Assembly (NCBI GenBank): GCA_947465495.1
Contig: CANIAS010000004.1
Location: 1,808-65,807, forward strand
Length of the DNA stretch: 64,000 nt
Origin: Candidatus Pollutiaquabacter sp.
GTDB taxonomy: Bacteria; Bacteroidota; Bacteroidia; AKYH767-A; 2013-40CM-41-45
Direction: 5' to 3'
Positions 33,429 to 54,275 of this stretch are shown one piece after another. The translations under genes and the position numbers were made by a program. The notes beneath the pieces are model-generated. The model was not told the origin of the DNA, did no database searches, and saw nothing but the letters and a program-made list of their open reading frames with translations. How positions within the stretch are numbered: position 1 is the stretch's first letter; each line of letters opens with the position of its first letter.

Positions 33429-34019
33429 ATGGCAGATTTAATCATTCCTCCTCTGATACCCGTTTCGCGTGAGCAGCGAGAGCGTACACTTGGACAGCAG
33501 GCCCATATTTTCTGGCTGACTGGTCTAAGTGGCAGCGGTAAAAGTACATTGGCAGGATTGCTTGAAACTAAATTACAAGAGCGCGGACACAAAACAATGT
33601 TATTGGATGGAGATGTGTTGCGAATGGGATTGAATAGCGACTTGGGTTTTAGTGACGAAGATCGCACAGAGAATATTCGTCGTGTCGGTGAAGTCAATCA
33701 ACTTTTCTTCGAGGCAGGATTGATAGTGATCAATGCGTTCATTTCCCCCTTTGAAGCTGATCGAGCATTTGTTCGGTCAAGAGTTCCCAGTCATGGATTC
33801 AGTGAAGTGTTTATCAAGGCGGATCTTACTGTATGTGAATCAAGAGACACTAAAGGCATGTATCAGAAGGCGAGAAGTGGTGAAATAGCGCTATTTACAG
33901 GTGTCAGTTCGCCGTACGAAGCTCCAGCTTTTCCCGAATTGGTGATTGAAACTGGAAGCCAAACGATTGAAGCAGCGTTGGAGATGCTGTTGGCTTACGC
34001 CATTACGAAAGTTCAGTGA
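33429..34019 (+). CDS. cysC: adenylyl-sulfate (APS) kinase
   Basis: P-loop FWLTGLSGSGKSTLA and LDGDVLR. The ATG at 33429 lies 1 nt after the preceding stop; the track ORF start at 33330 is an out-of-context extension. Confidence 0.88.
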   Translation: MADLIIPPLIPVSREQRERTLGQQAHIFWLTGLSGSGKSTLAGLLETKLQERGHKTMLLDGDVLRMGLNSDLGFSDEDRTENIRRVGEVNQLFFEAGLIVINAFISPFEADRAFVRSRVPSHGFSEVFIKADLTVCESRDTKGMYQKARSGEIALFTGVSSPYEAPAFPELVIETGSQTIEAALEMLLAYAITKVQ

Positions 34020-34089
34020 TGCTAATTGGCTTCGCCTGCTAAATTTCATACCTTCGTGAAAACGACGAATTCGTCGCATTGAACGGTAC

Positions 34090-34995
34090 ATGTTTTCGTA
34101 TAATCTAGATCATTTACGGGAGTTGGAGGCCGAGAGCATTTTTGTGCTCCGCGAGGTGGCTTCACAATTCGAGCGACCAGTTCTTCTCTTCAGTGGAGGA
34201 AAGGATTCAATTGTGACATCCTACTTGGCCCGCAAAGCCTTTTATCCTGCAGCCATCCCTTTTCAATTTATGCACATTGATACTGGCCACAATTTTCCGG
34301 AGACCTTAGAATTCCGTGATGCATGGATTAAGAAAATGGGGGTAGATTTAATTGTACGCAATGTTCAGGATTCCATCGACCAGGGAAAAGTAGCCGAAGA
34401 GAAAGGCCCTTATGCTAGTCGAAATTCTTTGCAAACAATTACATTGTTGGATGCCTTGCAGGAATTGAAAATCGATGCGGCCATCGGTGGTGCTCGTCGC
34501 GACGAAGAGAAGTCCCGCGCCAAAGAACGTTTCTTTTCGCACCGTGATGAGTTTGGTCAGTGGGAGCCTCGTCGCCAGCGTCCTGAACTTTGGAGCATCT
34601 TTAATGCACATCATTTACCAGGCGAGCATTTCCGGGTATTTCCCTTGAGTAATTGGACAGAGGAGGACATTTGGCAATACATCCGAAAAGAAAACATTGA
34701 AGTGCCTGCACTTTATTTCTCGCATGAGCGAGAAGTATTCGAACATCAACATAATTTATATGCTGTATCCGATTACATTCGACTCGGTGCAGATGTTACT
34801 CGCAGTCGAAAACTGGTACGTTTCCGGACTATTGGCGACATGACTTGCACCGGGGCCATTGAATCTGTGGCAATGAACATCGACGATATATTGCTTGAAA
34901 ATGCAGTGTCCCGTTTCACGGAACGAGGAACCCGGATCGATGATCAACGTTCTGAAACTTCGTTGGAGGATCGAAAACGTTCTGGGTACTTCTAA
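34090..34995 (+). CDS. cysD: sulfate adenylyltransferase subunit 2
   Basis: PP-loop LFSGGKDS, GGARRDEEKSRAKERFFS, 301 aa. Confidence 0.92.
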   Translation: MFSYNLDHLRELEAESIFVLREVASQFERPVLLFSGGKDSIVTSYLARKAFYPAAIPFQFMHIDTGHNFPETLEFRDAWIKKMGVDLIVRNVQDSIDQGKVAEEKGPYASRNSLQTITLLDALQELKIDAAIGGARRDEEKSRAKERFFSHRDEFGQWEPRRQRPELWSIFNAHHLPGEHFRVFPLSNWTEEDIWQYIRKENIEVPALYFSHEREVFEHQHNLYAVSDYIRLGADVTRSRKLVRFRTIGDMTCTGAIESVAMNIDDILLENAVSRFTERGTRIDDQRSETSLEDRKRSGYF

Positions 34996-35024
34996 TTCTT
35001 TGCCTATTTCAAATCTATCCAATC

Positions 35025-36284
35025 ATGCCTAACACCACTGCTTATAATATCCTTCGACTCACCACTTGTGGTAATGTGGACGATGGAAAAAGTACGCTCA
35101 TTGGCAGGATGTTGTTGGATACAAAGAGTATCATGGAAGATCAGTTAGAGGCCATTCGTTCTGCTAGTGAACGTCGTGGTATTCCTGGAGTGGACCTCTC
35201 GCTTATCACCGATGGTCTGAAAGCAGAGCGCGAACAAGGCATCACCATCGATGTCGCCTACCGTTACTTTTCCACTGCCAAACGGAAGTTCATTATTTCT
35301 GACACACCCGGACACATCCAGTATACTCGCAACATGGTGACTGGTGCTTCAAATTCGAATCTGGCAGTCATACTAGTGGATGCACGAAGAGGAATTCAGG
35401 AGCAAACATGCCGTCATGCATTTATTGCCTCGCTGCTTCGAATTCCACATCTCGTTTTGTGCATCAACAAAATGGATCTTGTCGGGTACGACGAAAAAAT
35501 ATATCAGTCCATTGTAGATGACTTCAAGGATTTTTCTTCTCGATTGGAAGTTCAGGATGTACAATTCATACCCGTCAGTGCGTTGATCGGGGATAACGTT
35601 GTCCATCGATCGGAAAATATGCCGTGGTACCAGGGTACAACGTTGATGTACCACTTGGAAAACGTACATATTAACAGTGACCTTAACCAAATTGATTGTC
35701 GCTTTCCAGTGCAGCATGTGATTCGACCTCGTTCAACGTCCTTTCCAGATTATCGTGGATATGCCGGCCGTATTTCGGGTGGGGTATTCCGCCCTGGAGA
35801 TTCAGTGATGGTACTTCCTTCTGGATTTACCTCCCGGATTAAGTCCATAGGATTAGGTGAACAAGCATTGATGGAAGCTTTCTCTCCAATGTCAGTTACC
35901 TTATGTTTAGAGGACGATTTGGATGTCAGTCGCGGCAATATGATAGTTCGTGAAAATAATCTGCCAACTTCGGGTCAGGATATCGATCTGATGGTTTGTT
36001 GGTTTAACCAACGTGCTTTGCAACCTGAGACTCGATACATTATCCAACATACCACTCATGAAGTTCGTTGTCAAGTTAAAGAAATTCGCTATAAGATGGA
36101 CATCAATACACTTCGTAGAGTTACCGATGATCCAAATCTTGGCATGAACGATATTGGTCGCGTTCGAATACGTACTACGCAACCCTTGCATTACGACAGT
36201 TACCGCCGAAACCGCATTACAGGTAGTGTTATTTTTGTGGATGAAAACTCCTGTGAAACCGTGGGAGCCGGCATGATCATCTGA
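35025..36284 (+). CDS. cysN: sulfate adenylyltransferase subunit 1 (GTPase, no fused APS kinase)
   Basis: G1 CGNVDDGKST, G3 DTPGH, G4 NKMD, 419 aa. Confidence 0.92.
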   Translation: MPNTTAYNILRLTTCGNVDDGKSTLIGRMLLDTKSIMEDQLEAIRSASERRGIPGVDLSLITDGLKAEREQGITIDVAYRYFSTAKRKFIISDTPGHIQYTRNMVTGASNSNLAVILVDARRGIQEQTCRHAFIASLLRIPHLVLCINKMDLVGYDEKIYQSIVDDFKDFSSRLEVQDVQFIPVSALIGDNVVHRSENMPWYQGTTLMYHLENVHINSDLNQIDCRFPVQHVIRPRSTSFPDYRGYAGRISGGVFRPGDSVMVLPSGFTSRIKSIGLGEQALMEAFSPMSVTLCLEDDLDVSRGNMIVRENNLPTSGQDIDLMVCWFNQRALQPETRYIIQHTTHEVRCQVKEIRYKMDINTLRRVTDDPNLGMNDIGRVRIRTTQPLHYDSYRRNRITGSVIFVDENSCETVGAGMII

Positions 36285-36296
36285 TTTGAATTAGCC

Positions 36297-37091
36297 ATGA
36301 TGGATTACCATGTACTACTGGAAGTTGCCATGCGTGCTTCCCTGGAAGCTGGAAAGGCAATTCTTGATGTATATCAATCGCGCTATGATGTTCAATTTAA
36401 AGCAGACCAATCGCCGGTAACAGCTGCTGATCTTGCGGCACATCGTGTATTGGTCGAATTATTATCTGCTACAGATATTCCGGTATTAAGTGAAGAGGGT
36501 TCATCCGTGGATTATGCTATACGAAGTACGTGGGAGTATTATTGGTTGATTGATCCACTGGACGGAACCAAGGAGTTCATTCACCAAAATGGAGAATTCA
36601 CTGTCAATGTCGCACTGATCCATCGTGATCAACCTGTTTTGGGAGTTGTATTTATTCCGGTGACTGATGATTTATTTGCAGGAATTGTGGGTGGTTCAGG
36701 CTGGCATTTCCCGAACATGTCTACTTTATCATCAACTACCTGGAAGGAAATGAATTCATTCGTTATCATTCCTTCTGCAAATCAAGATCATTATCGTGTA
36801 GCGGTCAGCCGCTCACACATGGATGCTGCTACTGAATTGTATCTTCAGAACTTACGCCTGGAAAAGCGTTTCTTGGAGACTGTTTCCGCTGGAAGCTCGA
36901 TGAAATTTTGCCTTGTTGCCCAGGGTCGTGCGGATGAATATCCCCGCTTCGGTCCAACGATGGAGTGGGATACAGCTGCTGGTCATGCAATCTTGTTGTC
37001 CATCGGAAAGAACATTTATTCCTTACAAGATGGAGATGTGATTCGTTACAATAAAAAAGAAATGATAAATGGTCCGTTTGTGGCTCGCTGA
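36297..37091 (+). CDS. cysQ: 3'(2'),5'-bisphosphate nucleotidase
   Basis: Inositol-monophosphatase family motifs LSEE, WLIDPLDGTKEF and WDTAAGHAIL. Confidence 0.85.
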   Translation: MMDYHVLLEVAMRASLEAGKAILDVYQSRYDVQFKADQSPVTAADLAAHRVLVELLSATDIPVLSEEGSSVDYAIRSTWEYYWLIDPLDGTKEFIHQNGEFTVNVALIHRDQPVLGVVFIPVTDDLFAGIVGGSGWHFPNMSTLSSTTWKEMNSFVIIPSANQDHYRVAVSRSHMDAATELYLQNLRLEKRFLETVSAGSSMKFCLVAQGRADEYPRFGPTMEWDTAAGHAILLSIGKNIYSLQDGDVIRYNKKEMINGPFVAR

Positions 37092-38415
37092 CGTAGCCCG
37101 AACGTGGCAACGATTCCGTAACGATTCGTCCTACCACGAACTTGTCCTTACCAGTGGACGTTCGTTGGTGGTGCGATTGCTGGGAGTGTCTACGGGCTTT
37201 TTAGTGACCTTGATTACTGCACGTTTTTTCTCGGCGGACGCGTTGGGTGTCGTCTCAATTTGCATAGGAATACTTAGTCTATCAAGCGTATTTGCCAAAC
37301 TTGGTCATGACGTAGCGCTTATGCGTTACATAGCGACCTTTTTTGAAGAAAAGAAATTCGAGGATATTCGTGGCATTTATCAAACCTCACTTCGGTTGGT
37401 ATTGCCTGTAACTGGTATGATTAGTCTGTTGCTCTATATCGCCGCGCCTTGGATGTCAGAGACGTGGTTCGATAAACCTCAGTTAAGGTTGGTGCTTCAG
37501 TGGAATTCCCTGTTGGTCATTCCACTTACGTTGCTACAAATCAATTCCGAGTGTTTGCGAGGAGTAAAGAGAATTATTGATTATACATTTTTTCAGACTG
37601 CAGCTGTTTCTACGTTTGCGGTGATTGGACTATTGGTAGCAATGGTGTTTTTTCCTAGTGTGGATGCACCTATACAAATTCAATTCGTAGGAATAGCGTT
37701 GGCGGCATTGATAAGTAGCTATCGTTGGCGCATGGTCGTCCGAGGGAAGCAGGAGTCTGATTTATCCGCCGTGACTTTTCGTCAGCTGAACAAGACCGCA
37801 GGTCCAATGTTCACAACTACCATCATGCAACTAGTCATGAGTTGGGCCGGTACGCTCATTTTGGCATCCTATCGACCTGCTTCCGATGTTGGTGTGTATA
37901 ATGCCTTGATTCGGATATCCGTTTTTACAAACATTACCATTTTGGCAATTAACGGATTAGTCATGACGCGCTTTGTAACGGCCTACCATTCTGGCAACTT
38001 AGCGGTACTGAAGCGCCATTCACACGAAGCGACACGCTTGATTTTTTTCACATCACTTCCAATGTTTGCTTTGCTTCTCTTATTTCCCACGATTGTTTTG
38101 ACTTTATTCGGAAACGAGTTTATCGGCCACGAAAATGAATTATACATTTTACTTGCTGGTCAGTTTATGGTAATCTGTGCTGGGTTGCCTGGGCAACTGC
38201 TCAACATGACTGACCGACAGCATGCGTTGCGTAATATTGCGATTATTTCAGCAACAATAAATCTTGTAAGTTGTTTTTGGCTGGTACCTGTGATGGGAAT
38301 GGCAGGTGCGTGCTGGGCACAATTCGCGGGAACGATGGTTTGGACATTTTTATGCGTATTTTCCGTCTACCGACGAATGAAAATTATGACCTTTATCGGA
38401 TTCTCGCGTTGGTAA
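37069..38415 (+). CDS. MOP-superfamily polysaccharide flippase (Wzx-like), copy 1
   Basis: 448 aa with about 12 hydrophobic helices. 23-nt overlap with cysQ. Confidence 0.7.
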   Translation: MVRLWLADVARTWQRFRNDSSYHELVLTSGRSLVVRLLGVSTGFLVTLITARFFSADALGVVSICIGILSLSSVFAKLGHDVALMRYIATFFEEKKFEDIRGIYQTSLRLVLPVTGMISLLLYIAAPWMSETWFDKPQLRLVLQWNSLLVIPLTLLQINSECLRGVKRIIDYTFFQTAAVSTFAVIGLLVAMVFFPSVDAPIQIQFVGIALAALISSYRWRMVVRGKQESDLSAVTFRQLNKTAGPMFTTTIMQLVMSWAGTLILASYRPASDVGVYNALIRISVFTNITILAINGLVMTRFVTAYHSGNLAVLKRHSHEATRLIFFTSLPMFALLLLFPTIVLTLFGNEFIGHENELYILLAGQFMVICAGLPGQLLNMTDRQHALRNIAIISATINLVSCFWLVPVMGMAGACWAQFAGTMVWTFLCVFSVYRRMKIMTFIGFSRW

Positions 38416-38441
38416 TAGGGGAAGAACCCGATAAACTGTCC

Positions 38442-39740
38442 ATGAAATCAGAAATTACGTCAACGGAAGTTATTCGCAACACCAGTTGGCCAGCGCCACT
38501 GGCGTACACGCTGCTGCTGTTGGTTTATGTTTCTACATTTCGCATACTCGCTACACTGCCGTTGGAATTCCTGCATCAGGCTGTTTCCACAGTGGCAATC
38601 GTTGGGTTGACACTTTTCTATGTCAGTAGTCTTTTCCTGAAGCTAAGGAAAAATCATCTTACTCGCCTCGATCTACTGGTGTGGTCGTTCATTTTGATCA
38701 ATTTCTTTGCAGCCTTTCAGGCACGCAACGTATTTGGTCAGCCCTATTATTTCGGAATTATGGCGCAACGATCCGTGCTGTTATCCTTGTCGGGAATGCT
38801 GCTAATATCCATGTTGCAGCAACGTTGGATTACGTTGTTGCAAATCGAACGAGCATTTGTTTGGATTAGTGTCATTCTCTTAATTGTCTTTTTTTATTTT
38901 TTTCTCTTTGTTAATCCGGTAAAATTCGGCGATGCTGAATTCGTAGCGTATAGTCCCATTCGTGGTTATCGATATCGATTTCAATTTGCATTGGTGATTA
39001 TGTTATTGTTTTATTCTTTGTTTAAGTTTTCCGAAAAACGCAGGCCGCTTTATTTAGTTCTTATTATAGCAATCCTTTTCTATTTGATCTATTTCTTGCA
39101 ATCCAGAACCACATTAGCCGTACTTCTGATTACGTTGTCCATTTATTTTTACAGAAATTTTTCGTTGCGGGAAAAGATTAAAAAGACCATTATTTATGGT
39201 TCATTGGTTTTTTTGGCGGTAGCGATCTTTTTTTCGCTGGGTATGACTTCCCTCTTCGAGAAATACCAAGTGCTTTACAACAATGTGGTTACGGTATTCT
39301 TTGGGGAATCGCCGGACGAGGCTTCATCTGCTGTACGATTCATGGAGCTGAATGTCGCGCTGGATCATATTTATAAACATCCGCTGCTTGGTAATGGATT
39401 TGTCAGCAGTCAATGGAACGGGGGATGGCATGAGATTTTGGGTTATTTTTATCCGGTTGACATCGGTTTGCTGGGCAATGTATTCGTATTCGGTATTCTT
39501 GGGACTGTATTAATCTACTTGCCATTTTATTATTCACTTTCATGGTCAAGGAATATTCATACCCAGGATGTTTTTTACAAGACCTGTGAGTACATGTTGC
39601 TTTTTTTCTTTCTAAGCATGTTTTTTTCTGCGGTTAATATTCGAGATTCAAGCAGTATATTATTTCTGGTCTGTTTGCTATATTACTACCGCTATCATTT
39701 TACTGATGCCGGTCAAATTACAATAAAGCACCATGAATAA
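38442..39740 (+). CDS. O-antigen polymerase/ligase family (Wzy-like) membrane protein
   Basis: Polytopic and very Phe/Leu/Ile-rich, with a large loop containing HPLLGNGF. The start is set at MKSEITS (38442), because the track ORF start overlaps the flippase by 145 nt. Confidence 0.6.
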   Translation: MKSEITSTEVIRNTSWPAPLAYTLLLLVYVSTFRILATLPLEFLHQAVSTVAIVGLTLFYVSSLFLKLRKNHLTRLDLLVWSFILINFFAAFQARNVFGQPYYFGIMAQRSVLLSLSGMLLISMLQQRWITLLQIERAFVWISVILLIVFFYFFLFVNPVKFGDAEFVAYSPIRGYRYRFQFALVIMLLFYSLFKFSEKRRPLYLVLIIAILFYLIYFLQSRTTLAVLLITLSIYFYRNFSLREKIKKTIIYGSLVFLAVAIFFSLGMTSLFEKYQVLYNNVVTVFFGESPDEASSAVRFMELNVALDHIYKHPLLGNGFVSSQWNGGWHEILGYFYPVDIGLLGNVFVFGILGTVLIYLPFYYSLSWSRNIHTQDVFYKTCEYMLLFFFLSMFFSAVNIRDSSSILFLVCLLYYYRYHFTDAGQITIKHHE

Positions 39741-40638
39741 AAGGTATCCTGACTTCTTAGTGGTCGGCGCTGCTCGGTCTGGTACTACCGCCTTGCACCG
39801 TTTGTTAAAGCAACATCCACAACTTTTTTTGCCAGCTGTTAAGGAGCCCTGTTTTTTCACTTTTGCAGACGATGCTACGGAATACCGCGGTGGTCGATTT
39901 GCATTTGCAGTAAAAGAAGAGGCTGCCTATTTGCAGTTATTTTCAGGGGCTGGCGATGATCAGTGTGCCGGTGAGATATCTACCCCTTATCTCTACATGC
40001 ATTCCAGGACCATAGCGGCTATTAAACGGTATGTGCCTCATTCGGAGAAAGTAAAGATCATCATGGTCTTACGTCATCCGGTGGAAAGGACATTTTCCAA
40101 TTACCTTTGGCGAAAGCGTGATGGACGAGAAGACGAGAACTTTGAAAATGCCTTGGCAATGGAGCAGGAACGAATTCGTAAAGGATATTCGTTTGATTAT
40201 TTTTATGCTTCCCGGAGTTTGTATTCTGAAGGTGTTAAGGCCTATCAAGATGCCTTTGAAAATGTAAAGGTGTTCTTGTATGACGACTTTCGCTTACGGC
40301 AAGCAGAAGTCTTGCGTGAGATTTGCGACTTTTTGCAAGTCAATCCAAATTTTCGTTTTCGGAAGGTGGTGGAAATAAATAGAAGCACTTCGCCTAAATT
40401 TCCACTAATCAACCGGTGGCTCACAGCGGAGTTGAAGTGGAAGTTCCGATTCCTGAACGTACTGCCAACAGATTTCAGAGATGGATTGCGGAACATGCTG
40501 TTTAAGTGGAATTCATCCAGTGATCCCGAAATTACCATGAAACAGGAAACGCGGATGTCGCTGCTCAAAAAATTCGAAGAAGATACAGATCGTTTAGCGC
40601 AATTAATTAGTCGCGATTTGTCGCACTGGAAAGTATGA
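39733..40638 (+). CDS. PAPS-dependent sulfotransferase
   Basis: 5'-PSB loop VVGAARSGTTAL and 3'-PB motif LRHPVERTFSNY. Soluble, 301 aa, with an 8-nt overlap with the upstream gene. Confidence 0.8.
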   Translation: MNKRYPDFLVVGAARSGTTALHRLLKQHPQLFLPAVKEPCFFTFADDATEYRGGRFAFAVKEEAAYLQLFSGAGDDQCAGEISTPYLYMHSRTIAAIKRYVPHSEKVKIIMVLRHPVERTFSNYLWRKRDGREDENFENALAMEQERIRKGYSFDYFYASRSLYSEGVKAYQDAFENVKVFLYDDFRLRQAEVLREICDFLQVNPNFRFRKVVEINRSTSPKFPLINRWLTAELKWKFRFLNVLPTDFRDGLRNMLFKWNSSSDPEITMKQETRMSLLKKFEEDTDRLAQLISRDLSHWKV

Positions 40639-41744
40639 ATGTCAATTCCATTCATACAGCTATCCTCGATCCTGTAGGTGTAAAAGCCGGAATGGATCAG
40701 TATGATATGCGTTTGGCGACAGCATTGCAATTGCAAGGTGTTAACGTGTCTATACTTTCAAACTTCAACGGAAATGGTGTAGTCAAATTCTTTTCATCGT
40801 CAGTGGTGGCCGGCTTATTCAGTTACCTTCAATTGATTTTCGCGTATCGAAAAGCTATTGAATTTTGTGATGCGAATACTGTTAAGCAGGCGATTTTGCA
40901 TGTGTTTGGATTCACACGCACAGATCGTTGGGTGATTAGCCAATTTCAACGGAGAGGCATTCGTGTAGTGCTTATTGTGCATGATGTGGAGTCTTTTGTT
41001 TATAAAAACACCATGGACAGAACTCGTGCGATATTACTCCAATGCAAAGACAGTATTATTGTTCATCATAAATCAGCTGCCGCCGAGATACTTCGTTTGG
41101 TGGGCAATGATGTTCCAGTTAACGTGTTGCCGCACGGTCATTTTATTTCGGAACAACCTGTCGTTTACGAAAAGCGAATGGCGCGTGAGAAACTTGGCAT
41201 TCCTATATCGGGTTTTTGTCCGTTGTTTTTTGGAATGATAAAGCCGACGAAAGGCCTCTCCGTGCTGCTGGATGCCATGGAACTAGTCGGTTCAAACTAC
41301 CACGTACTTGTGGCAGGTCGTCCACGAGGAGACGTTCGGTCGCAGCTTGAAGGATTAGTGAAATTGCAAAAAAAGGGACGAGCAACTTTTTCGATAGGAT
41401 ATATTACGGAGGATGAAATGGAACTCTGGTTTCTGGCGGCTGATTGTATTGTCCTTCCGTATGAGAGGATCTATCAAAGTGGCGTTGCATTGCAAGCAAT
41501 GAGTCGAAAGGTTCCGGTATTGATGTCAGATTTACCTGCACATGCAGAATGGCATCATGCGGGGGCTGACGCCACGCTGTTTCAAGCAGGTGATTCCGTA
41601 GATCTTGCCTTGAAATTGCAGTGGATGCAGCATAATTTGGTAGAGATCGCACAGCGAGCGGATCGAGCGTATCAACATCTTGTAAAGTATCACGACTGGA
41701 AAATACTAGCCAGTGGAATCGTTAATCTGTCTGCAGTAGGATGA
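40635..41744 (+). CDS. glycosyltransferase family 4 (GT-B)
   Basis: C-terminal retaining-GT motif region ADCIVLPYERIYQSGVALQAMSRKVPVLMSD. ATGA overlap with the sulfotransferase gene. Confidence 0.7.
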   Translation: MNVNSIHTAILDPVGVKAGMDQYDMRLATALQLQGVNVSILSNFNGNGVVKFFSSSVVAGLFSYLQLIFAYRKAIEFCDANTVKQAILHVFGFTRTDRWVISQFQRRGIRVVLIVHDVESFVYKNTMDRTRAILLQCKDSIIVHHKSAAAEILRLVGNDVPVNVLPHGHFISEQPVVYEKRMAREKLGIPISGFCPLFFGMIKPTKGLSVLLDAMELVGSNYHVLVAGRPRGDVRSQLEGLVKLQKKGRATFSIGYITEDEMELWFLAADCIVLPYERIYQSGVALQAMSRKVPVLMSDLPAHAEWHHAGADATLFQAGDSVDLALKLQWMQHNLVEIAQRADRAYQHLVKYHDWKILASGIVNLSAVG

Positions 41745-42811: not shown

Positions 42812-42821
42812 TATTTGCATC

Positions 42822-43895: not shown

Positions 43896-44788
43896 AAAAA
43901 TCAATTCGCATATTGACCATTGATTTGGAGGATTGGTACCATTTGTTGGATCATCCGTTGACGAAATCGCCCGAACAATGGGTGACTTTTGAATCGCGGG
44001 TGGAAAAAAATGTGCATTGGCTTTTGGAATTATTGGACAAGTATAACATTCAAGCGACATGGTTTTGTCTTGGATGGGTTGCTGCCCGCTATCCATCCTT
44101 GATCCGCGAAGTTGCCAAGCGACACGAAATCGGCTGCCATACCTACCTTCATCAATTGGTTTATGAGCAAGACCGGCAGCAATTCATTGCAGACGCTAAA
44201 CAAGCCAAGTCGGTGCTGGAAGATATTACCGGATGTTCGATAAATACGTTCCGGGCGGCAGGTTTTTCAGTGACGCCAAAATCTCCCTGGTATTTTGAGG
44301 CACTCTCTGAAGTTGGGTTTCGCATTGACAGCTCTGTTTTCCCCGCTCGACGACAGCATGGTGGTCACCCTTCATTCGGCATTGATAAGCCATGTCGTAT
44401 CCAAACTAATTATGGTGAATTGTTGGAATTTCCCTTGCCTGTGAAATTAGTGGCTGGTCGTTCCTTGGTTTATAGCGGTGGTGGATATTTTCGGTTGCTG
44501 CCCTATCAGTTGATCCGCCGGTGGATTGGCCAATCCGATTACAGCCTTACCTATTTTCACCCGCGTGATTTTGATCCATCTCAACCCTTAGCGCCAGGAC
44601 TTCCGTTGAAACGCCGCTTTATGTCTTACTACGGATTGAAAAGTAGTCGTGCTAAGTTCGAATCGCTACTTCGTGATTTTAAATTTGAAAGCATTGGTGC
44701 AGTGGCTGAGCGACTACATCACCTTCACCTTCCATTGCTTCAGATTGGCGATGATGGGAGCGTGATTTCACAGCTTAAAAATGCGTAA
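43892..44788 (+). CDS. CE4 polysaccharide deacetylase (DUF3473-type)
   Basis: ILTIDLEDWYH (Asp motif) and GCHTYLHQ (H-[ST]-x-x-H metal motif). GTG start overlapping the upstream stop (GTGA). Confidence 0.8.
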   Translation: MKKSIRILTIDLEDWYHLLDHPLTKSPEQWVTFESRVEKNVHWLLELLDKYNIQATWFCLGWVAARYPSLIREVAKRHEIGCHTYLHQLVYEQDRQQFIADAKQAKSVLEDITGCSINTFRAAGFSVTPKSPWYFEALSEVGFRIDSSVFPARRQHGGHPSFGIDKPCRIQTNYGELLEFPLPVKLVAGRSLVYSGGGYFRLLPYQLIRRWIGQSDYSLTYFHPRDFDPSQPLAPGLPLKRRFMSYYGLKSSRAKFESLLRDFKFESIGAVAERLHHLHLPLLQIGDDGSVISQLKNA

Positions 44789-46394
44789 ATTCGTCAGTAT
44801 GTTGAAACGCATTCTGACGTTCACCTTATTCGTACTATTTTTTTGCAAAGCGCATGCTCAGGAGTACTTATTTCCGCTTAATCGAGATGTGAATACACGC
44901 ATAGGTCATGCATTGACTGGTGACACACTTGGATTTCACACCTCCCTTCAGCCGTACGCATACACAGACTTACAGGGCGTTGTGTCTGCGGACTCCTTGC
45001 GCATGAATTCTCTTGGGACGGAAAAGTTCTATTCGACATGGGTTGGCAGAAAATTGTTTTCGGAGCATCTCTTGTTGGTCGATACCGATGACATTATCCT
45101 CTCGTTGGATCCCGTATTCAATTTGCAGGCTGGATCCGATCTCTTGAATCAGCGCAATGTCTTTGTCAATACACGTGGACTCCTGGTTCAAGGAAACGTG
45201 AAGAACAAGTTTTTCTTCTATTCTTCCTTTCATGAAAATCAAGCACGCTATGTGAATTATATCGATAGTCTGATCCGGCAGCAACAAGTGGTTCCCGGTC
45301 AGGGTAAAGTCAAATTCCTCGACAAGGAGGAGTTTGATTTCAGTATGGCTTCCGGTGGCATGGCATACAGAATAAACAAGCATTTTGAATTTTTACTGGC
45401 TCAAGATCGATTGTTTATTGGAGATGGTTATCGCTCGATGCTATTATCAGACAATGCCTATCCGTTCCCGTTTCTTCGCACCAACATGACTTTTTGGAAA
45501 TTCCGTTATTCGGTTATCTATGCCGTCATGCAGGATTTACAGACACCTCCTGATCAGAACGTGGGTTATCCTAAAAAGTATGGAACGTTTCATTATTTGG
45601 ACCTCAATATAGGTCGAAAGAACAAATTGACCGTAGGTATTTTTGAGTCTGTCATTTGGAAGCCTGCGGCCTCTCGTGGCTATGAATTACATTACTTAAA
45701 TCCCTTCCTGTTTTTACGTCCTGTAGAGAATTCAATAGGATCTCCTGATAATGCTTTATTAGGATTAAATGTCAGATGGAAAATGTCACATTCTTCAGTC
45801 ATGTATGGTCAGTTGATGTTGGATGAGTTTCTTTTAGATGAAGTTCGTAGTGGCGAAGGATGGTGGGGAAATAAGCAGGCCGGACAATTAGGTTTTAAAT
45901 CCTACGACGTGGCAGGAATACGTTTCTTGAATGTACAAACAGAGTTTAACGTCGCGCGTCCCTTCATGTATCAACATCGAAGCAGTTCCCAAAACTATGC
46001 ACACTACAATCAGTCGCTAGCGCATACGCTGGGAGCGGATTTTTATGAGTCCATCAGCTTTATAAACTATCGTTGGAGAAATTTCTTTGCAGAGCTGAAA
46101 TTCCAATATGCCAAAGCAGGAAAAGATACTGCCGGAATTAACTTAGGGAATGATATCTTTCAGTCGTACGATACACGTCCCGGCGACTACGGGTACTATT
46201 TAGTCACAGGATTGAAGAGCACACTCACGAATCTGGGTCTACGGGTGAACTATTTGGTGAATCCCAAAACAAACTTTGTAGTGGAAGCCGGCATTGAATG
46301 TCGCAATTATTCCAATGAAGTAGATCAGCAGCAATCGCAGTTTGTTTATTTTGGTTTAAGGACTTCGCTGGAGAATTATTACTTCGATTTTTAA
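44781..46394 (+). CDS. predicted outer-membrane beta-barrel protein of the glycan locus (family uncertain; Wzi/RemB-like are possibilities)
   Basis: Signal peptide MRKFVSMLKRILTFTLFVLFFCKAHAQ. 537 aa, aromatic-rich alternating strands, C-terminal SLENYYFDF ending in Phe. Confidence 0.55.
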   Translation: MRKFVSMLKRILTFTLFVLFFCKAHAQEYLFPLNRDVNTRIGHALTGDTLGFHTSLQPYAYTDLQGVVSADSLRMNSLGTEKFYSTWVGRKLFSEHLLLVDTDDIILSLDPVFNLQAGSDLLNQRNVFVNTRGLLVQGNVKNKFFFYSSFHENQARYVNYIDSLIRQQQVVPGQGKVKFLDKEEFDFSMASGGMAYRINKHFEFLLAQDRLFIGDGYRSMLLSDNAYPFPFLRTNMTFWKFRYSVIYAVMQDLQTPPDQNVGYPKKYGTFHYLDLNIGRKNKLTVGIFESVIWKPAASRGYELHYLNPFLFLRPVENSIGSPDNALLGLNVRWKMSHSSVMYGQLMLDEFLLDEVRSGEGWWGNKQAGQLGFKSYDVAGIRFLNVQTEFNVARPFMYQHRSSSQNYAHYNQSLAHTLGADFYESISFINYRWRNFFAELKFQYAKAGKDTAGINLGNDIFQSYDTRPGDYGYYLVTGLKSTLTNLGLRVNYLVNPKTNFVVEAGIECRNYSNEVDQQQSQFVYFGLRTSLENYYFDF

Positions 46395-46488
46395 TCCTTA
46401 TTTTTCAAGAATAGGTGTTGAATACTAGCAGCCAGTATACGGCGTTCATGTCGGCTGTGGTTGTATCTTGGCTTCATCTTTTTCAGGC

Positions 46489-47538
46489 ATGAATTTGGTC
46501 CTCTCCTTCGTCATTTCATTGGTTTGTTCATTGACGTTTCTTCCGTCATTGATTCAGGCGGCGCATGCTCGTCGGATTCTGGACCTTCCAGGACCACGCA
46601 AGATTCATCGTGAACCGGTTGCATTATTGGGCGGAGTAGGCATTTTTGCTGCTCTGCTGTTGTCACTAACTTTTTTTGGGGCTCGCTTTTTTGAGCCGGA
46701 TCATCTCTTTCTATTGACTTCCGTGATATTATTGTTCTTCATGGGATTGCGTGATGATATGTCGCCATTGTCTCCTGGGGTGAAGCTATTCGGACAATTT
46801 ACGGCAGCTGCCATTTCTGTCCTCTTAGGGAACATTCGTTTGTCGTCTCTTTATGGATTACTAGGACATCATCAGTTGCCCTTTGTAGGGTCTGTTGCAG
46901 TGTCAATTCTGTTGATAGTGTTTATGATCAATGCATTTAACTTCATGGACGGTGTTGATGGATTGGCAGGAACTATAGCGGCCATAGCTAGTTCGGTTGC
47001 AGGCGTCATTTTTTATTACTCAGGTCAATTTTTCTTCGCTATACTTTCGCTTTCCCTTGCGGGTTCAATCCTTGGATTTCTTCGGTTTAATATAACTCCG
47101 GCTCGCGTTTTCATGGGGGACTCCGGGTCCATGTCCATCGGATTTCTCCTGGCCATTTGTGGAATGCAATTGACATCTGTTTCCCTTTGGAGGATGGCGG
47201 ACGGTAGTAGTTCAAATGGTTTTTTGATCGCGATTGCATTGTTGGCGCTTCCTGCTGTGGATGCACTTCAGCTTATTGTTTTGCGCTTGCTAAATGGCAG
47301 GTCGCCATTTCGACCTGATAACTGCCACTTTCATCATCAATTAGTTGCGATAGGATGGTCGGGCAAAAGAATCGTTCTTTTCTATTTATTGTTGCAAATT
47401 TTCTTCTTGCTGGTGGTGTGTTATTTCCCATTTAGATCTGCATTTCAACCCATCTGCTTCATACTTCTAAGTACATTGTCCATCATTCGTTTTGCTCATT
47501 GGCAAGCTGGAAAGGCAATCGTGGCACTTAAACGCTGA
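46489..47538 (+). CDS. polyprenyl-phosphate HexNAc-1-phosphate transferase (MraY/WecA family initiating transferase)
   Basis: NAFNFMDGVDGLAG and VFMGDSGSMSIGF motifs, about 10 TM helices. Alternative TTG start at 46468. Confidence 0.8.
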   Translation: MNLVLSFVISLVCSLTFLPSLIQAAHARRILDLPGPRKIHREPVALLGGVGIFAALLLSLTFFGARFFEPDHLFLLTSVILLFFMGLRDDMSPLSPGVKLFGQFTAAAISVLLGNIRLSSLYGLLGHHQLPFVGSVAVSILLIVFMINAFNFMDGVDGLAGTIAAIASSVAGVIFYYSGQFFFAILSLSLAGSILGFLRFNITPARVFMGDSGSMSIGFLLAICGMQLTSVSLWRMADGSSSNGFLIAIALLALPAVDALQLIVLRLLNGRSPFRPDNCHFHHQLVAIGWSGKRIVLFYLLLQIFFLLVVCYFPFRSAFQPICFILLSTLSIIRFAHWQAGKAIVALKR

Positions 47539-47606
47539 AGACGAAACATCCCATACTCATTTAAGGTATAAGGCCGAGCCCCAACAATTGCTTGGCTGAT
47601 TCTCCC

Positions 47607-48746
47607 ATGTCTCCCACTCATAAAAAACTCCTCTTTATTTTCGGTACACGACCAGAGGCGATTAAGTTAGCTCCTTTGGTCCGTGTGTTTTCAAACCATG
47701 CTGGTTTCGAAGTTAAAGTAGCAGTAACTGCCCAACACCGACAGATGTTGGATCAGGTGCTGGCCTTTTTTGAGATTGTGCCGGACTATGATCTGGACAT
47801 GATGAAGCCGAATCAGTCATTGTTTGATGTGACGGCAGCGGGTATCAAAGGCCTGGAATCAGTGCTTGAAGATGCCACTCCCGATCTTGTGTTTGTTCAG
47901 GGCGATACCACCACAGCGTTCATTGGTGCTTTGGCTGCCTATTATAAGAAAATCAAAGTGGCTCACGTCGAAGCAGGTCTTAGAAGTCATCATAAATATT
48001 CTCCATTCCCGGAAGAAATGAACCGCATCATGGCAGGTCATTTGTCGGATCTTCATTTGGCTCCAACTTCCGGTGCTGCGGAAAACCTCCGACGGGAGAA
48101 CATCCTGGAAGGAATTCACGTGGTTGGTAATACGGTTATCGATGCGCTTTTTCTGGGATTGGATTTATTGAAGGGGCCTAAAGGTGAGCCTATACGACAA
48201 TCGCTGCAACACTTGCCCATCAATCAACGATTTGTATTGGTTACAGGACATCGTCGCGAAAGCTTCGGAGAGCCTTTCGAAAATATCTGTCATGCTATCG
48301 CTGAAAGTGCGGCGTGTTTCCCCGACGTAGCATTCATATATCCCGTGCATTTGAATCCCAATGTTCAGGAGCCGGTGCATCGAATTTTAGGAGGATTATC
48401 GAATGTACGTCTCATTGAGCCACTGGACTATCCACATTTTATTTGGTTGATGGAGCGTTGTTATGTAGCGCTGACGGATTCAGGAGGTATGCAGGAAGAG
48501 GCTCCGTCACTCGGTAAGCCAGTGCTGGTTATGAGGGAAGTTACGGAACGTCAGGAAGGAATCGATGCTGGCACCGCACGTTTGGTAGGTACCGACCAAA
48601 AGGTCATTTTTGAAGCGTTGCATGAATTGCTATCGAATGAAGAAGCCTATCAGCGTATGGCTAAGTCGGTCAATCCCTATGGCGATGGAACTGCATCCAA
48701 TCGAATAGCAACAATCGTCGGAAAATATTTAAGTGATACGATCTAA
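47607..48746 (+). CDS. wecB: UDP-N-acetylglucosamine 2-epimerase (non-hydrolysing)
   Basis: LFIFGTRPEAIKLAPL, VQGDTTTA, HVEAGLRS, TDSGGMQEEAPSLGKPVLVMR. Confidence 0.9.
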   Translation: MSPTHKKLLFIFGTRPEAIKLAPLVRVFSNHAGFEVKVAVTAQHRQMLDQVLAFFEIVPDYDLDMMKPNQSLFDVTAAGIKGLESVLEDATPDLVFVQGDTTTAFIGALAAYYKKIKVAHVEAGLRSHHKYSPFPEEMNRIMAGHLSDLHLAPTSGAAENLRRENILEGIHVVGNTVIDALFLGLDLLKGPKGEPIRQSLQHLPINQRFVLVTGHRRESFGEPFENICHAIAESAACFPDVAFIYPVHLNPNVQEPVHRILGGLSNVRLIEPLDYPHFIWLMERCYVALTDSGGMQEEAPSLGKPVLVMREVTERQEGIDAGTARLVGTDQKVIFEALHELLSNEEAYQRMAKSVNPYGDGTASNRIATIVGKYLSDTI

Positions 48747-48761
48747 TCGTTGGTCAGAATT

Positions 48762-49976
48762 ATGAAAGAACAAACTAAAATACAAGTTGCCATATTGGGC
48801 TTGGGATACATTGGATTGCCAACGGCAGCGTTGATTGCGAGTAAAGGTATCATGGTGAATGGGGTCGATGTTAACCGACATGTGATTGATACGATCAATA
48901 AAGGAAAGATTCATATTGTGGAGCCGGATCTCGAAGGATTGGTCCATTTGGCTGTTCGAAAGGGAGTATTGATAGCAGGGCCAAAGGTAAAAGCGTCGGA
49001 TGTTTTTTTGGTAGCAGTTCCTACTCCGTTTAAAAAAGGACATCAGCCTGATCTCTCGTATGTGGAGAAGGCCACACGCATGATTTTACCACAGTTGCGT
49101 CCGGGGAATTTATTTATCATCGAATCCACCAGTCCGGTCGGAACTACTGAAAAAATGGCGCGATTGATTTTTAGAGAACGCCCGGAGCTGAAAGGTAAGA
49201 TCCACCTGGCTTATTGTCCTGAACGGGTTTTGCCGGGCAGTGTCATCTATGAATTGCAACAAAACGATCGTGTGATTGGTGGCATCGATGAGGCATCGAC
49301 AGAGGCGGCTGTACGTTTCTATAGTCGTTTCGTGCGTGGATCATTGCATAAGACCAATTCCCGGACGGCCGAAATGACCAAATTAGTTGAGAATGCATAC
49401 CGTGATGTGAACATTGCGTTTGCAAATGAATTATCTGTCATTTGCGAAGAAGCGGACATCAACGTCAATGAGTTGATCAATCTAGCCAGTAAGCATCCGC
49501 GGGTAAAAATACTTCAACCAGGTCCAGGCGTCGGTGGACATTGCATTGCTGTTGATCCTTGGTTCATTGTTGCTGATTTCCCAAAGCAAGCCAAACTAAT
49601 ACGTCTCGCGCGTGAAGTCAATACTGGCAAAACCGAATGGGTACAGCAAAAAATACAAGATACTGCTGCGTCCTTTCAGAAAAAACAAGGTCGTCCGGCC
49701 GTGGTGGCCTGTATGGGTCTCGCTTACAAGCCTGACATTGACGATTTGCGGGAGTCACCAGCGTTGGAAATATATGAACACCTGGAGAAGCACGGAATTA
49801 CGGTCATGGCTGTAGAGCCGAACATCCGTAAACATTCAAAGCTGGCGATTACAGATACGTTGCGTGCCGTTCGTGAGGCGGATATCTTGGTCTTTTTGGT
49901 TCGACATAAAGAATTTGTCGGCTTGAACACCGCTGGTAAAACGGTATTGGATTTCTGTGGCGTAGTTAATCATTGA
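48762..49976 (+). CDS. wecC: UDP-N-acetyl-D-mannosamine dehydrogenase
   Basis: VAILGLGYIGLPTA Rossmann motif, catalytic GGHCI, AYKPDIDDLRESPA. Adjacent to wecB. Confidence 0.85.
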   Translation: MKEQTKIQVAILGLGYIGLPTAALIASKGIMVNGVDVNRHVIDTINKGKIHIVEPDLEGLVHLAVRKGVLIAGPKVKASDVFLVAVPTPFKKGHQPDLSYVEKATRMILPQLRPGNLFIIESTSPVGTTEKMARLIFRERPELKGKIHLAYCPERVLPGSVIYELQQNDRVIGGIDEASTEAAVRFYSRFVRGSLHKTNSRTAEMTKLVENAYRDVNIAFANELSVICEEADINVNELINLASKHPRVKILQPGPGVGGHCIAVDPWFIVADFPKQAKLIRLAREVNTGKTEWVQQKIQDTAASFQKKQGRPAVVACMGLAYKPDIDDLRESPALEIYEHLEKHGITVMAVEPNIRKHSKLAITDTLRAVREADILVFLVRHKEFVGLNTAGKTVLDFCGVVNH

Positions 49977-50005
49977 TTCTTATTTATTACTAGCAATACA
50001 AATCG

Positions 50006-51313
50006 ATGTCTTCGAACGCTCCGTTGAATAGTATCAGTCGTTATTTCGGACTGACACGCAGCGTTACGGAGTCGATGATGTTCCGATTTGTAGGATTATT
50101 GTTGGTGTTTTTACTACACCTGATTTTAGCCCGTCTGATGGGACCTAAAGAGTACGGGTATTATTCCATCATAACTTCCTGGTTGAGCATATTGTTGGTG
50201 GTTAGTCTTTTTGGGATGGACAAGGCGGTGTTACGCTTTTTCCCATCGGCGCTGGCTAAAAACGATTATGGGATGGCTGCAGGTTTTTTACGCTTCTCGC
50301 GAATACTGATATTGGTATTGTCGTTCATTTGCGGGGTATGTGCATTTCTGGTGATACTAGACAAAAGCCGGAATGGGCTTGTTAATTTTTCGGAAGGATT
50401 TTTTTGGGCGCTATTTCTGTTGCCTTTGCTTGCCATGGTCTATCAAGGAGCAGCGGTCCTGCGCTCGTACAATCGAATCAAGGCTTCGATGCTTCCTGTC
50501 TATATTTTACTGCCGGTATTTCTTTCCATTGCCGTGGCGATTTATTATTACCAGCATCACCGACTGTCAGTAGATGCTGTCATGTTTCTTCAGCTGGGTT
50601 GTACTTTTTTAGTGATGTTGTGGGTTCGTCGAATGGTTCGCCGTAAAATGGATCCGCTGATTGGAGAAGCAACTCCTGAAATAGAGCCGAGGGTGTGGCT
50701 CTCGGTTGCTTCTGCCTTTTTTCTGAGTTCCATCATCGAAATGCTTCTCAAACAGTCCGACATTCTGATGGTCGGCTATTTGATGAGCCATGTGCGAGCT
50801 GGCGAATATTCTGCCGCTTCTCGGATTACATCGCTTATTGCTTTTGGTATATCGGTGTCAGACTATCTGTACATGCCCAAGATTACGGCGTTGTATGTGT
50901 CGGGAAAAAAACGGGCATTGCAGGAAATGGTGCGGACATCAGCACGACAAATTATGGGCTTGACATTGCCACTGATGGTACTCTTGGTGCTGAGTGGACC
51001 GTGGCTGTTGGCGGCATTCGGTCCTACTTTTAAAAAAGCATACATTCCCATGTTGATCCTTCTTGCCGGCCAGTTGGTGAATGCGGCAACAGGACTTTCT
51101 GGTGCGCTGTTAACCATGGCAGGAAATAGAAACAGCTACGTATTGTATTCCTTCGTGTCGTTCGTATTTCAAATCTTTTTCATGTTGTTGTTGGTTCCGG
51201 TTTGGGGCCTTTCGGGTGCTGCAGTATCTGCTGCTTTGGCGCGTATACTCCTGAATTTCTTGGCCTATCGCCATGTGCGTACTAAGATTGGTATTACCGC
51301 GTCGGTGTGGTAA
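50006..51313 (+). CDS. MOP-superfamily polysaccharide flippase (Wzx-like), copy 2
   Basis: 435 aa, polytopic, polysaccharide-biosynthesis-protein-like topology. Last gene of the plus-strand train. Confidence 0.65.
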   Translation: MSSNAPLNSISRYFGLTRSVTESMMFRFVGLLLVFLLHLILARLMGPKEYGYYSIITSWLSILLVVSLFGMDKAVLRFFPSALAKNDYGMAAGFLRFSRILILVLSFICGVCAFLVILDKSRNGLVNFSEGFFWALFLLPLLAMVYQGAAVLRSYNRIKASMLPVYILLPVFLSIAVAIYYYQHHRLSVDAVMFLQLGCTFLVMLWVRRMVRRKMDPLIGEATPEIEPRVWLSVASAFFLSSIIEMLLKQSDILMVGYLMSHVRAGEYSAASRITSLIAFGISVSDYLYMPKITALYVSGKKRALQEMVRTSARQIMGLTLPLMVLLVLSGPWLLAAFGPTFKKAYIPMLILLAGQLVNAATGLSGALLTMAGNRNSYVLYSFVSFVFQIFFMLLLVPVWGLSGAAVSAALARILLNFLAYRHVRTKIGITASVW

Positions 51314-52402: not shown

Positions 52403-52404
52403 TC

Positions 52405-53055: not shown

Positions 53056-53108
53056 TAGTAACCTCCATTAACAGTAACGTATAAATTTCTCAATCAACCG
53101 ATACCTAA

Positions 53109-53915: not shown

Positions 53916-53935
53916 CACAGCATCATCCTAGCCTT

Positions 53936-54268
53936 ATGTCAAATAATCATCACGCAGTAGCCGCTGAGGGCGGACACGATCACGGTTCATTGACAACCAA
54001 GCTGATCTGGAGAGTATTCTGGATTCTTTTGGCGGTAACCATTTTCGAAGTAGCGATCTCTTTTACGGGAATTTCCAAAGAGGTCCTCATGCTTACCTTT
54101 ATCGTACTCACGATTGTAAAATCCTATTACATCGTGGGCTACTTCATGCACCTTAAATACGAGGCAGTTCCTTTCCGCTGGTCGATTCTGCTCCCGTTCA
54201 TTCTCATTGTATACCTCATTTTCATCGCCCTTTACGAAGGTTCCTCGTTGACGATGGCTCCTCTCTAA
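53936..54268 (+). CDS. cytochrome c oxidase subunit IV family (prokaryotic small subunit)
   Basis: 110 aa with 3 TM helices, positioned right after subunit III. Start set at MSNNHH (53936); the track ORF start overlaps the previous gene. Confidence 0.6.
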   Translation: MSNNHHAVAAEGGHDHGSLTTKLIWRVFWILLAVTIFEVAISFTGISKEVLMLTFIVLTIVKSYYIVGYFMHLKYEAVPFRWSILLPFILIVYLIFIALYEGSSLTMAPL

Positions 54269-54275
54269 GATCACC

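Follow-up and report, generated by a model that had tools for sequence, protein, structure and literature searches.

A "hallmark" of the synthesis of sulfated polysaccharides has been seen in polysaccharide clusters that combine genes for making 3'-phosphoadenosine 5'-phosphosulfate (PAPS) with a sulfotransferase gene (PMC11641403). The capsule cluster of Cobetia marina KMM 1449 carries cysN/C, cysD, cysQ, a sulfate permease and a sulfotransferase, and its polymer contains Rha2S by nuclear magnetic resonance (PMC11766843); a polysaccharide cluster of Vibrio sp. KMM 8419 holds second copies of cysC, cysN and cysD (PMC11641403). Sulfotransferases also belong to synechan (xss), the gene cluster for a sulfated extracellular polysaccharide (EPS) in Synechocystis (PMC13125312). 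Here we describe a locus in a 64,000-nucleotide stretch of the forward strand of a Candidatus Pollutiaquabacter sp. genome (Bacteroidota; assembly GCA_947465495.1, contig CANIAS010000004.1, positions 1,808 to 65,807), in which cysC, cysD, cysN and cysQ run into Wzx/Wzy-type glycan genes that include a sulfotransferase. The whole stretch is hereafter called the window, and coordinates are those of the window.

Within the same phylum, cholesterol sulfate is the product of the Bacteroides SULT cluster, whose six genes encode CysC, CysD, CysN, a Na+/sulfate symporter, CysQ and a sulfotransferase (PMC11503954, citing Le et al. 2022), and a mat metagenome study had no sulfotransferase in any of its Bacteroidetes metagenome-assembled genomes (MAGs) (PMC9723792). 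The original prediction, made from the letters of the window, held that genetically defined sulfated polysaccharide loci are rare in bacteria and essentially uncharacterised in Bacteroidota. The rarity was overstated, given the hallmark wording (PMC11641403), the Cobetia chemistry (PMC11766843), the Bacteroides cluster (PMC11503954) and the Flavobacteriaceae cassettes reported below. The narrower claim stands within our literature searches, in which no locus for a sulfated glycan came up that has been characterised in Bacteroidota.

Our analysis suggests that the locus directs the synthesis of a sulfated surface glycan through a Wzx/Wzy-type lipid-linked pathway fed by locus-encoded PAPS, which we consider the best explanation of its gene content and a likely one.

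Gene content and spacing of the locus

The genes from cysC to the second flippase are given below by coordinates, strand and assignment, with profile scores in bits set against the family cutoff where there is one.

33429..34019, + strand: cysC, adenosine 5'-phosphosulfate (APS) kinase; PF01583 (APS_kinase) E 1.8e-60; TIGR00455 232 bits vs 139; motif GLSGSGKST
34090..34995, + strand: cysD, ATP sulfurylase small subunit; TIGR02039 400.5 bits vs 396.6; motif SGGKDS
35025..36284, + strand: cysN, ATP sulfurylase GTPase subunit; TIGR02034 543 bits vs 336; three G-motifs
36297..37091, + strand: cysQ, 3',5'-bisphosphate nucleotidase for 3'-phosphoadenosine 5'-phosphate (PAP); TIGR01331 261 bits vs 229
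37069..38415, + strand: Wzx-type MOP flippase 1; MatE, Polysacc_synt and Polysacc_synt_3 matches; at least 9 hydrophobic segments
38442..39740, + strand: polytopic membrane protein of the Wzy/WaaL superfamily; Wzy_C matches in orthologues; at least 8 hydrophobic segments
39733..40638, + strand: soluble PAPS-dependent sulfotransferase; Sulfotransfer_3 (PF13469) 53.4 bits vs 27; Sulfotransfer_1 (PF00685) 35.7 vs 22
40635..41744, + strand: GT-B (GT4) glycosyltransferase a; Glyco_trans_1_4, Glycos_transf_1
41741..42811, + strand: GT-B (GT4) glycosyltransferase b, WchF/Cps2T type with DUF1972; DUF1972, Glyco_transf_4; NF046071 (Cps2T) E 2.4e-60, under the cutoff
42822..43895, + strand: tandem-GNAT acyltransferase with an N-myristoyltransferase/FemABX-like fold; Acetyltransf_9 26.4 bits vs 25; AlphaFold and Foldseek
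43892..44788, + strand: CE4 polysaccharide de-N-acetylase with DUF3473, cytoplasmic; Polysacc_deac_1 and DUF3473; TIGR03006 246 bits, under the cutoff of 276
44781..46394, + strand: Wzi-like outer-membrane barrel, 537 aa; PF14052 in homologues; AlphaFold and Foldseek
46468..47538, + strand: WecA-like polyprenyl-phosphate N-acetylhexosamine (HexNAc)-1-phosphate transferase (initiating); Glycos_transf_4 E 5e-40; TIGR02380 145 bits, under the cutoff of 326
47592..48746, + strand: wecB, UDP-GlcNAc 2-epimerase; TIGR00236 477 bits vs 210
48750..49976, + strand: wecC, UDP-ManNAc dehydrogenase; NF008286 529 bits vs 459
50006..51313, + strand: Wzx-type MOP flippase 2; Polysacc_synt_3, Polysacc_synt; seen downstream in six clade loci

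All gene families claimed in the original prediction were reproduced by hidden Markov model (HMM) searches, except for the Wzy-like protein and the outer-membrane barrel, and the nine peptide motifs that it quoted are all present at the genes to which it assigned them. The Wzy-like open reading frame (ORF) opens at 38271, with a likely start at ATG 38442, and the likely start of the WecA-like gene is ATG 46489. The initiating transferase, the two MOP proteins and the two GT4 proteins are parts expected of a Wzx/Wzy locus. The four cys genes are contiguous with wzx, and the sulfotransferase gene sits between the wzy-like and glycosyltransferase genes.

Spacing had been described as 4-23 nt overlaps or gaps under 30 nt. 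Overlaps of 4-23 nt between start and stop codons do occur from cysQ through the barrel gene: cysQ overlaps the start of flippase 1 by 23 nt, the sulfotransferase gene overlaps the wzy-like gene by 8 nt and the glycosyltransferase gene by 4 nt, and the end of the GNAT gene reaches 4 nt into the CE4 gene. The description fails, however, between cysC and cysD (70 nt), barrel gene and wecA (73 nt) and wecA and wecB (53 nt), as measured on the longest ORFs.

Conservation of the locus within an uncultured clade

Scanning 185,579 species genomes (GTDB species representatives) with a sulfotransferase profile gave 78 loci, against which all proteins of the window locus were compared. The source contig of the window (ENA assembly ERZ27263731, k141_1790896, 80.7 kb) belongs to a genome outside this set. 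The best sulfotransferase match had 58% identity, and 31 species-level loci, all from uncultured organisms, form a clade with sulfotransferase identities of 44-58%. Clade members are labelled Bacteroidota, Bacteroidia or Flavobacteriales, with one exception (L031, Ignavibacteriaceae), and one of them is the completely sequenced Ca. Pollutiaquabacter aromativorans (order Ca. Pollutiaquabacterales); where isolate names tell, they come from river water, lake water and soil. A literature search on the name Pollutiaquabacter found no paper.

A comparison of gene order, as the original prediction had proposed, found the locus collinear across the 31 clade loci, in the order deoC-aldh-half-aldh-cysC-cysD-cysN-cysQ-wzx-wzy-like-sulfotransferase-GTa-GTb-GNAT-CE4-barrel-wecA-wecB-wecC-wzx2. 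Where the sequence upstream was long enough, cysQ lies next to wzx in 25 of 26 clade loci, and 15 of 20 have the full set of four cys genes. We read the locus as a trait conserved throughout this uncultured Bacteroidia clade, to which Ca. Pollutiaquabacter belongs, and not as a strain-variable capsule island.

Some clade loci are exceptions to this order. A methyltransferase-like ORF takes the position of cysC in L022, and L033 has only a cysQ remnant. Two loci (L029 and L035) have cysQ only, with M16 peptidases and a type IX secretion system (T9SS) protein upstream. Another PAPS synthase replacing cysCDN upstream of cysQ was considered for L029 and ruled out, the ORFs there being M16 peptidases and a T9SS CHU_C protein. 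In L017 (= L003; 3.07-Mb contig CAVZJJ010000004.1, locus at about 2150-17300), the positions of cysC and cysD are taken by insertion sequence (IS)/transposase genes. The CE4 gene has lost its 5' end and is preceded by an inserted cold-shock gene, the barrel gene matches in three pieces, and wecA, wecB and wecC do not lie next to one another. Intact copies remain of the wzx, wzy, sulfotransferase and glycosyltransferase genes. This is a degraded copy of the locus, in which assembly errors could explain the broken barrel gene but not the IS insertion. It follows from the exceptions that cysCDN need not be local, and that cysQ is the most firmly attached of the cys genes.

PAPS cassettes beside sulfotransferases in other lineages

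Outside the clade, 35 loci with sulfotransferase homologues of 33-40% identity were informative, and in 11 of them cys genes lie no more than 10 kb away. These cassettes come in at least five gene orders from several phyla, and rearranged versions occur in cultured Flavobacteriaceae, Sulfurovum, Nitrospirae, Desulfobulbia and Acidobacteria; in most cases a Wzx-like gene is nearby. The orders are as follows.

Mesonia phycicola: wecB-wecC-cysC-cysD-cysN-cysQ-wzx-sulfotransferase
Psychroserpens and Flagellimonas: cysQ-cysC-cysD-cysN-(wzx)-sulfotransferase
Sulfurovum: cysD-cysN-cysC-cysQ-wzx-sulfotransferase
Nitrospirae: wzx-cysC-cysQ-sulfotransferase-sulfotransferase
Acidobacteria MAG: cysD-cysN-cysC-wzx-sulfotransferase-sulfotransferase
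Desulfobulbia: cysD-cysN-cysC-sulfotransferase

Because the same parts have been assembled repeatedly in different orders, these loci point to a functional coupling of PAPS supply, PAP removal and sulfotransferase, and they appear to be stronger evidence than synteny within the clade. The proposed tie between the PAPS genes and the glycan sulfotransferase is therefore supported twice over, by an order kept in about 30 species and by variant cassettes in five other lineages.

Several loci of the scan carry three or four paralogous sulfotransferases beside Wzx, Wzy and glycosyltransferases (L038, from Parafilimonas terrae DSM 28286; L039, L040, L049 and L056). Such multi-sulfotransferase loci belong to Chitinophagales, to an Acidobacteria MAG and to a Brocadia MAG; among the carriers is a cultured type strain. 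Their gene content would suggest multiply sulfated repeat units.

The cys genes could instead be the ordinary and sole sulfate-activation set for assimilation, with the sulfotransferase drawing on the general PAPS pool and its adjacency to them having no dedicated meaning. A distal cysH/sir that depends on these cys genes is possible, our view being that of the 64-kb window; the housekeeping genes deoC and aldh are just as collinear in the clade, as general synteny conservation would have it, and in several clade members a local cysC, cysD or cysN is missing beside the glycan genes. However, as originally observed, there is no APS/PAPS reductase (cysH) and no sulfite reductase among the window ORFs of at least 150 aa, hence no assimilatory sulfate reduction operon with these genes linked to cysDN within the 64 kb. 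Furthermore, chance adjacency does not predict cys cassettes next to homologous sulfotransferases in unrelated lineages and in other gene orders: the 11 of 35 loci compare with a rough expectation of well under 1% per 20-kb window (an estimate and not a computed value, which takes a genome to be a few Mb long and to hold a single locus of this kind). In addition, cysQ overlaps wzx by those 23 nt and remains attached to it even where cysCDN is absent. We consider an assimilatory role without a dedicated link to the glycan unlikely.

The sulfotransferase and its acceptor

The N-terminus of the sulfotransferase opens straight into the PAPS loop, MNKRYPDFLVVGAARSGTT. The 5'-phosphosulfate-binding motif (5'-PSB), GAARSGTT, spans residues 12-19 and the 3'-phosphate-binding motif (3'-PB), RHPVERTFS, residues 114-122. 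In 15 homologues, down to 33% identity, the patterns GAA[RK]xGTT, KEP and RxPxxRxxS are conserved and residues G12, A13, A14, G17, T18, T19, R114, R119 and S122 do not vary; where other members have the PSB lysine, the window protein has arginine. K37-E38-P39 is also invariant in the 15 homologues and provides a candidate catalytic base, the invariant Glu lying about 23 residues after the PSB Lys/Arg. We take this spacing to resemble that of the catalytic Glu in heparan sulfate 3-O-sulfotransferases (3-OSTs). The prediction of a soluble enzyme with both PAPS-binding motifs (RSGTT and RHPVERTFS) was thus borne out, and the protein looks functional from its conserved residues.

In a search of PDB sequences, the protein aligned end to end with 3rnl, a solved bacterial sulfotransferase (E 3.9e-43), and marginally with heparan sulfate 3-OST and the N-sulfotransferase (NST) domain of N-deacetylase/N-sulfotransferase (NDST) (E 0.003-0.007). 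All share the same sulfotransferase fold family and the 5'-PSB and 3'-PB motifs, but the similarity to the animal enzymes is only marginal. The sulfotransferase has no transmembrane or signal segment, nor do the CE4 and GNAT proteins, and all three should therefore act where PAPS is. Given the location of PAPS and the Wzx pathway, we infer that the sulfotransferase acts on the cytoplasmic face, on a lipid-linked unit before flipping.

Acceptor specificity is not readable from sequence, and the Bacteroides cysC/D/N/Q and sulfotransferase cluster makes a sterol sulfate (PMC11503954). The window enzyme might likewise sulfate something other than a glycan, for example a membrane lipid, a sterol-like molecule or a small metabolite, and leave the glycan unsulfated. 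Its setting argues for a carbohydrate, however: the gene is wedged between the wzy-like and glycosyltransferase genes by its 8-nt and 4-nt overlaps, it keeps this position in 31 of 31 clade loci, and distant homologues adjoin Wzx flippases and glycosyltransferases, at times with two to four paralogues per glycan locus (L038-L040, L049). The remote PDB relatives beyond 3rnl are carbohydrate sulfotransferases only, and the locus is without a sulfate symporter, unlike the Bacteroides cluster. A non-glycan acceptor is accordingly very improbable in our view. No ABC transporter or sulfate permease was found in the window either.

Glycan assembly proteins and proposed pathway

The Wzy-like protein is the probable repeat-unit polymerase; its orthologues in relatives match Wzy_C. 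It shows 54-75% identity across the clade. For the 537-aa barrel protein there was no Pfam match even at E 10. It has about 2,000 homologues in the protein collection, many of them at 52-74% identity and with a precomputed PF14052 (Caps_assemb_Wzi) assignment, and its AlphaFold model (pLDDT 74, pTM 0.75) shows a signal sequence, N-terminal helices and a barrel of about 18 strands. Foldseek matched this model to OccD/OprD porins, Wzi (2ynk) and the alginate exporter AlgE; Wzi has the highest score among the matches listed (TM 0.50/0.59), with OccD and AlgE scoring similarly, and we call the modelled protein Wzi-like.

A called protein of 357 aa with 100% identity sets the start of the GNAT gene at ATG 42822. 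The AlphaFold model of the GNAT protein (pLDDT 83, pTM 0.85) consists of two fused GNAT domains, and the top Foldseek matches were N-myristoyltransferases (E 1e-14, TM about 0.6), a fold class shared with FemABX-type transferases. Searches of PDB sequences with the barrel and GNAT proteins returned nothing meaningful. The CE4 protein has no signal peptide, and on the simplest reading it would form a cytoplasmic pair with the GNAT protein, for de-N-acetylation followed by re-N-acylation. ManNAcA would be part of the repeat unit, judging by wecB and wecC only.

A Crocinitomicaceae MAG (L071, 19-5531) has a distant sulfotransferase (35%) clustered with a GT4 gene, a CE4/DUF3473 gene (46% identity) and a WecA-like gene, a second and independent co-occurrence of a sulfotransferase with this deacetylase type.

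For the sequence of events we infer the following order of steps, with gene functions that rest on family matches. CysDN and CysC would convert sulfate to PAPS, and the WecA-like enzyme would place HexNAc-1-phosphate onto undecaprenyl phosphate. The two GT-B transferases would extend the lipid-linked unit, one of the sugars probably being ManNAcA from WecB and WecC; the CE4 protein may then strip an N-acetyl group and the adjoining tandem-GNAT protein re-acylate the free amine. In the cytoplasm the soluble sulfotransferase would transfer sulfate from PAPS to the lipid-linked unit, with CysQ hydrolysing PAP, the inhibitory by-product. A MOP flippase would take the unit across the inner membrane, the Wzy-like protein would polymerise the units, and the Wzi-like barrel may hold or pass the anionic polymer at the outer membrane.

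An N-sulfate is another conceivable use of the same enzymes. The product might be a lineage-wide common antigen in which the CE4 protein frees the amine on a lipid-linked HexNAc or ManNAcA and the NST/3-OST-like sulfotransferase N-sulfates it, as a split counterpart of the animal N-deacetylase/N-sulfotransferase. We give this little credence, because the adjoining tandem-GNAT protein is the more obvious user of a free amine. We know of no N-sulfated glycans described from bacteria.

Several points weigh against a sulfated Wzx/Wzy-type surface glycan. Glycan sulfate and its acceptor are predicted here from the genes. The Wzy-like protein has no Pfam or NCBIfam match of its own, and a profile of four of its orthologues found no match among PDB sequences at E 10; since Wzy_C also contains O-antigen ligases, polymerase and ligase are not told apart. 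No Wza, Wzc or Wzz was found among the window ORFs of at least 150 aa; another part of the genome may encode them. The clade amounts to a single event, because its order is one inherited arrangement and the deoC and aldh neighbours are conserved too. L022, L029, L035, L033 and L017 are without some of cysC, cysD and cysN, and the PAPS genes may serve assimilation as well. Nor is tight spacing alone proof of a single operon, because the whole 26-55 kb stretch is co-directional, with every gene between 26262 and about 55500 on the + strand. Promoters and terminators could not be located: the Bacteroidetes-type promoter motif TTTG-N17-23-TAnnTTTG had no match in the window, and scans for sigma-70 promoters and for terminators gave no more matches than expected from shuffled sequence.

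Some of these points would also fit a short, conserved sulfated glycan in place of a polymerised capsule or EPS, namely a WaaL-ligated lipopolysaccharide unit, a common antigen like the enterobacterial one, or a modification or anchor of T9SS proteins. The breadth of Wzy_C and the missing Wza, Wzc and Wzz are compatible with it, 54-75% identity is unusually conserved for a polymerase, the locus is clade-wide and not strain-variable, and T9SS components and cargo are abundant in the window. The CE4 and tandem-GNAT pair would resemble the de-acetylation and re-acylation of the linking sugar in the P. gingivalis Wbp/Vim pathway. On the other side, a Wzi-like barrel is typical of surface-associated capsules, and the T9SS tie is one of genome neighbourhood only, at more than 8 kb. 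A short glycan is possible but doubtful, though it is the most serious of the alternatives, and a polymerised sulfated surface glycan remains the reading that we favour.

Upstream boundary and neighbouring genes

The original prediction began the locus at cysC (33429), which is too narrow: a trio of genes directly upstream is collinear with the locus in relatives.

30070..30990, + strand: deoC, deoxyribose-phosphate aldolase; TIGR00126 187 bits vs cutoff 117; 82-88% identity and collinear in clade loci
31011..32489, + strand: full-length aldehyde dehydrogenase, upstream neighbour; Aldedh E 2e-158; 82-85% identity in clade loci
32489..33427, + strand: half-length aldehyde-dehydrogenase-like protein; Aldedh match covers profile positions 6-231 of 461 (N-terminal half)

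The conserved neighbour deoC is probably a housekeeping gene and not glycan-specific. A role of deoC and the aldehyde dehydrogenase as a sulfo-sugar (YihT-like) aldolase pair was set aside, because the aldolase scores as a deoC equivalog (187 bits vs 117). The half-length gene ends 1 nt before cysC. It is kept across the clade (295-312 aa, 62-75% identity; for example L001 2848-3735 and L004 2703-3626), always after the full-length aldehyde dehydrogenase and deoC, and judging by this conservation it is no pseudogene.

Upstream of deoC, a + strand block at 26262-30006 encodes a TlpA-like thiol-disulfide oxidoreductase, a DUF6029 protein (E 5e-182), an Omp28-like protein and a small outer-membrane barrel, the last of which is also found upstream of deoC in relatives. 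Downstream, a 222-nt gap after flippase 2 precedes cox/ubiA genes: 51536-55530 (+) encodes a UbiA-family prenyltransferase (probably heme O synthase), two COX3 paralogues, COX4_pro, SCO1/SenC and DUF420, a cytochrome oxidase assembly set.

Elsewhere in the window, SprA, the type IX secretion translocon (2416 aa), is encoded at 10670-17920 (-), and there are at least four proteins with T9SS C-terminal sorting domains (Sortilin/BNR, thioredoxin-like, small and PKD-repeat; 18645-21155 (-), 23626-24327 (-), 24402-26120 (-) and 62023-63993 (+)). An S-adenosylmethionine (SAM) riboswitch (RF00162, 69 bits vs a gathering score of 44.4) at 58140-58263 (+) lies directly upstream of the B12-dependent methionine synthase gene, metH. 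The longest metH ORF (GTG 58224) overlaps the riboswitch, and the real start is therefore probably ATG 58368 or 58371.

Implications and comparison with known systems

Sulfated polysaccharides are usually associated with marine life, algae or animals, and Bacteroidota are seen as their degraders. If the proposed pathway is right, Bacteroidia of freshwater, rivers, lakes and wastewater would be producers of sulfated glycans too, and these would form an additional sulfate-ester sink in low-sulfate habitats. The prediction can be tested in tractable cultured strains, as the same cassette occurs in cultured marine Flavobacteriaceae; cultured strains with an analogous cassette include Mesonia phycicola DSM 21425, Psychroserpens damuponensis JCM 17632 and Flagellimonas yonaguniensis 334s03. 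Moreover, the locus would offer a compact Wzx/Wzy-type gene set (PAPS supply, PAP recycling and sulfotransferase) for engineering sulfated polysaccharides. The gain is one of taxonomic and ecological range, since the concept has already been published for other phyla.

Like the Cobetia and Vibrio clusters, the window locus has PAPS-synthesis genes and a sulfotransferase inside a polysaccharide cluster. Those are gammaproteobacterial, with kps ABC-transporter export and, in Cobetia, a permease, and neither kps genes nor a permease were found in the window. Here, the setting is Bacteroidia and the locus is of the Wzx/Wzy type, with separate cysC and cysN, a Wzi-like barrel and a CE4/tandem-GNAT pair, and, as a prediction from gene content, it contrasts with the proteobacterial examples in being conserved across a whole clade. 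Synechan differs in being cyanobacterial. Its assembly is reportedly Wzx/Wzy-dependent, and to our knowledge PAPS genes are not part of the xss cluster.

The Bacteroides SULT cluster comes from the same phylum as the window locus and, like it, has its own genes for making PAPS and removing PAP next to a sulfotransferase gene. That cluster has a symporter, a sterol acceptor and no glycan genes, whereas here there is no symporter and the sulfotransferase stands among glycan genes.

The enterobacterial common antigen (ECA, wec) cluster resembles the locus in WecA-type initiation, UDP-ManNAcA synthesis by WecB/WecC, the presence of Wzx and a Wzy-like protein and lineage-wide conservation. WecB and WecC score above their equivalog cutoffs, but membership in the ECA system itself was rejected: the WecA-like protein scores 145 against 326, and no WecG, Fuc4NAc or Wzz/WzzE families were found. 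The locus adds predicted sulfation, a CE4 deacetylase, a GNAT acyltransferase and a Wzi-like barrel.

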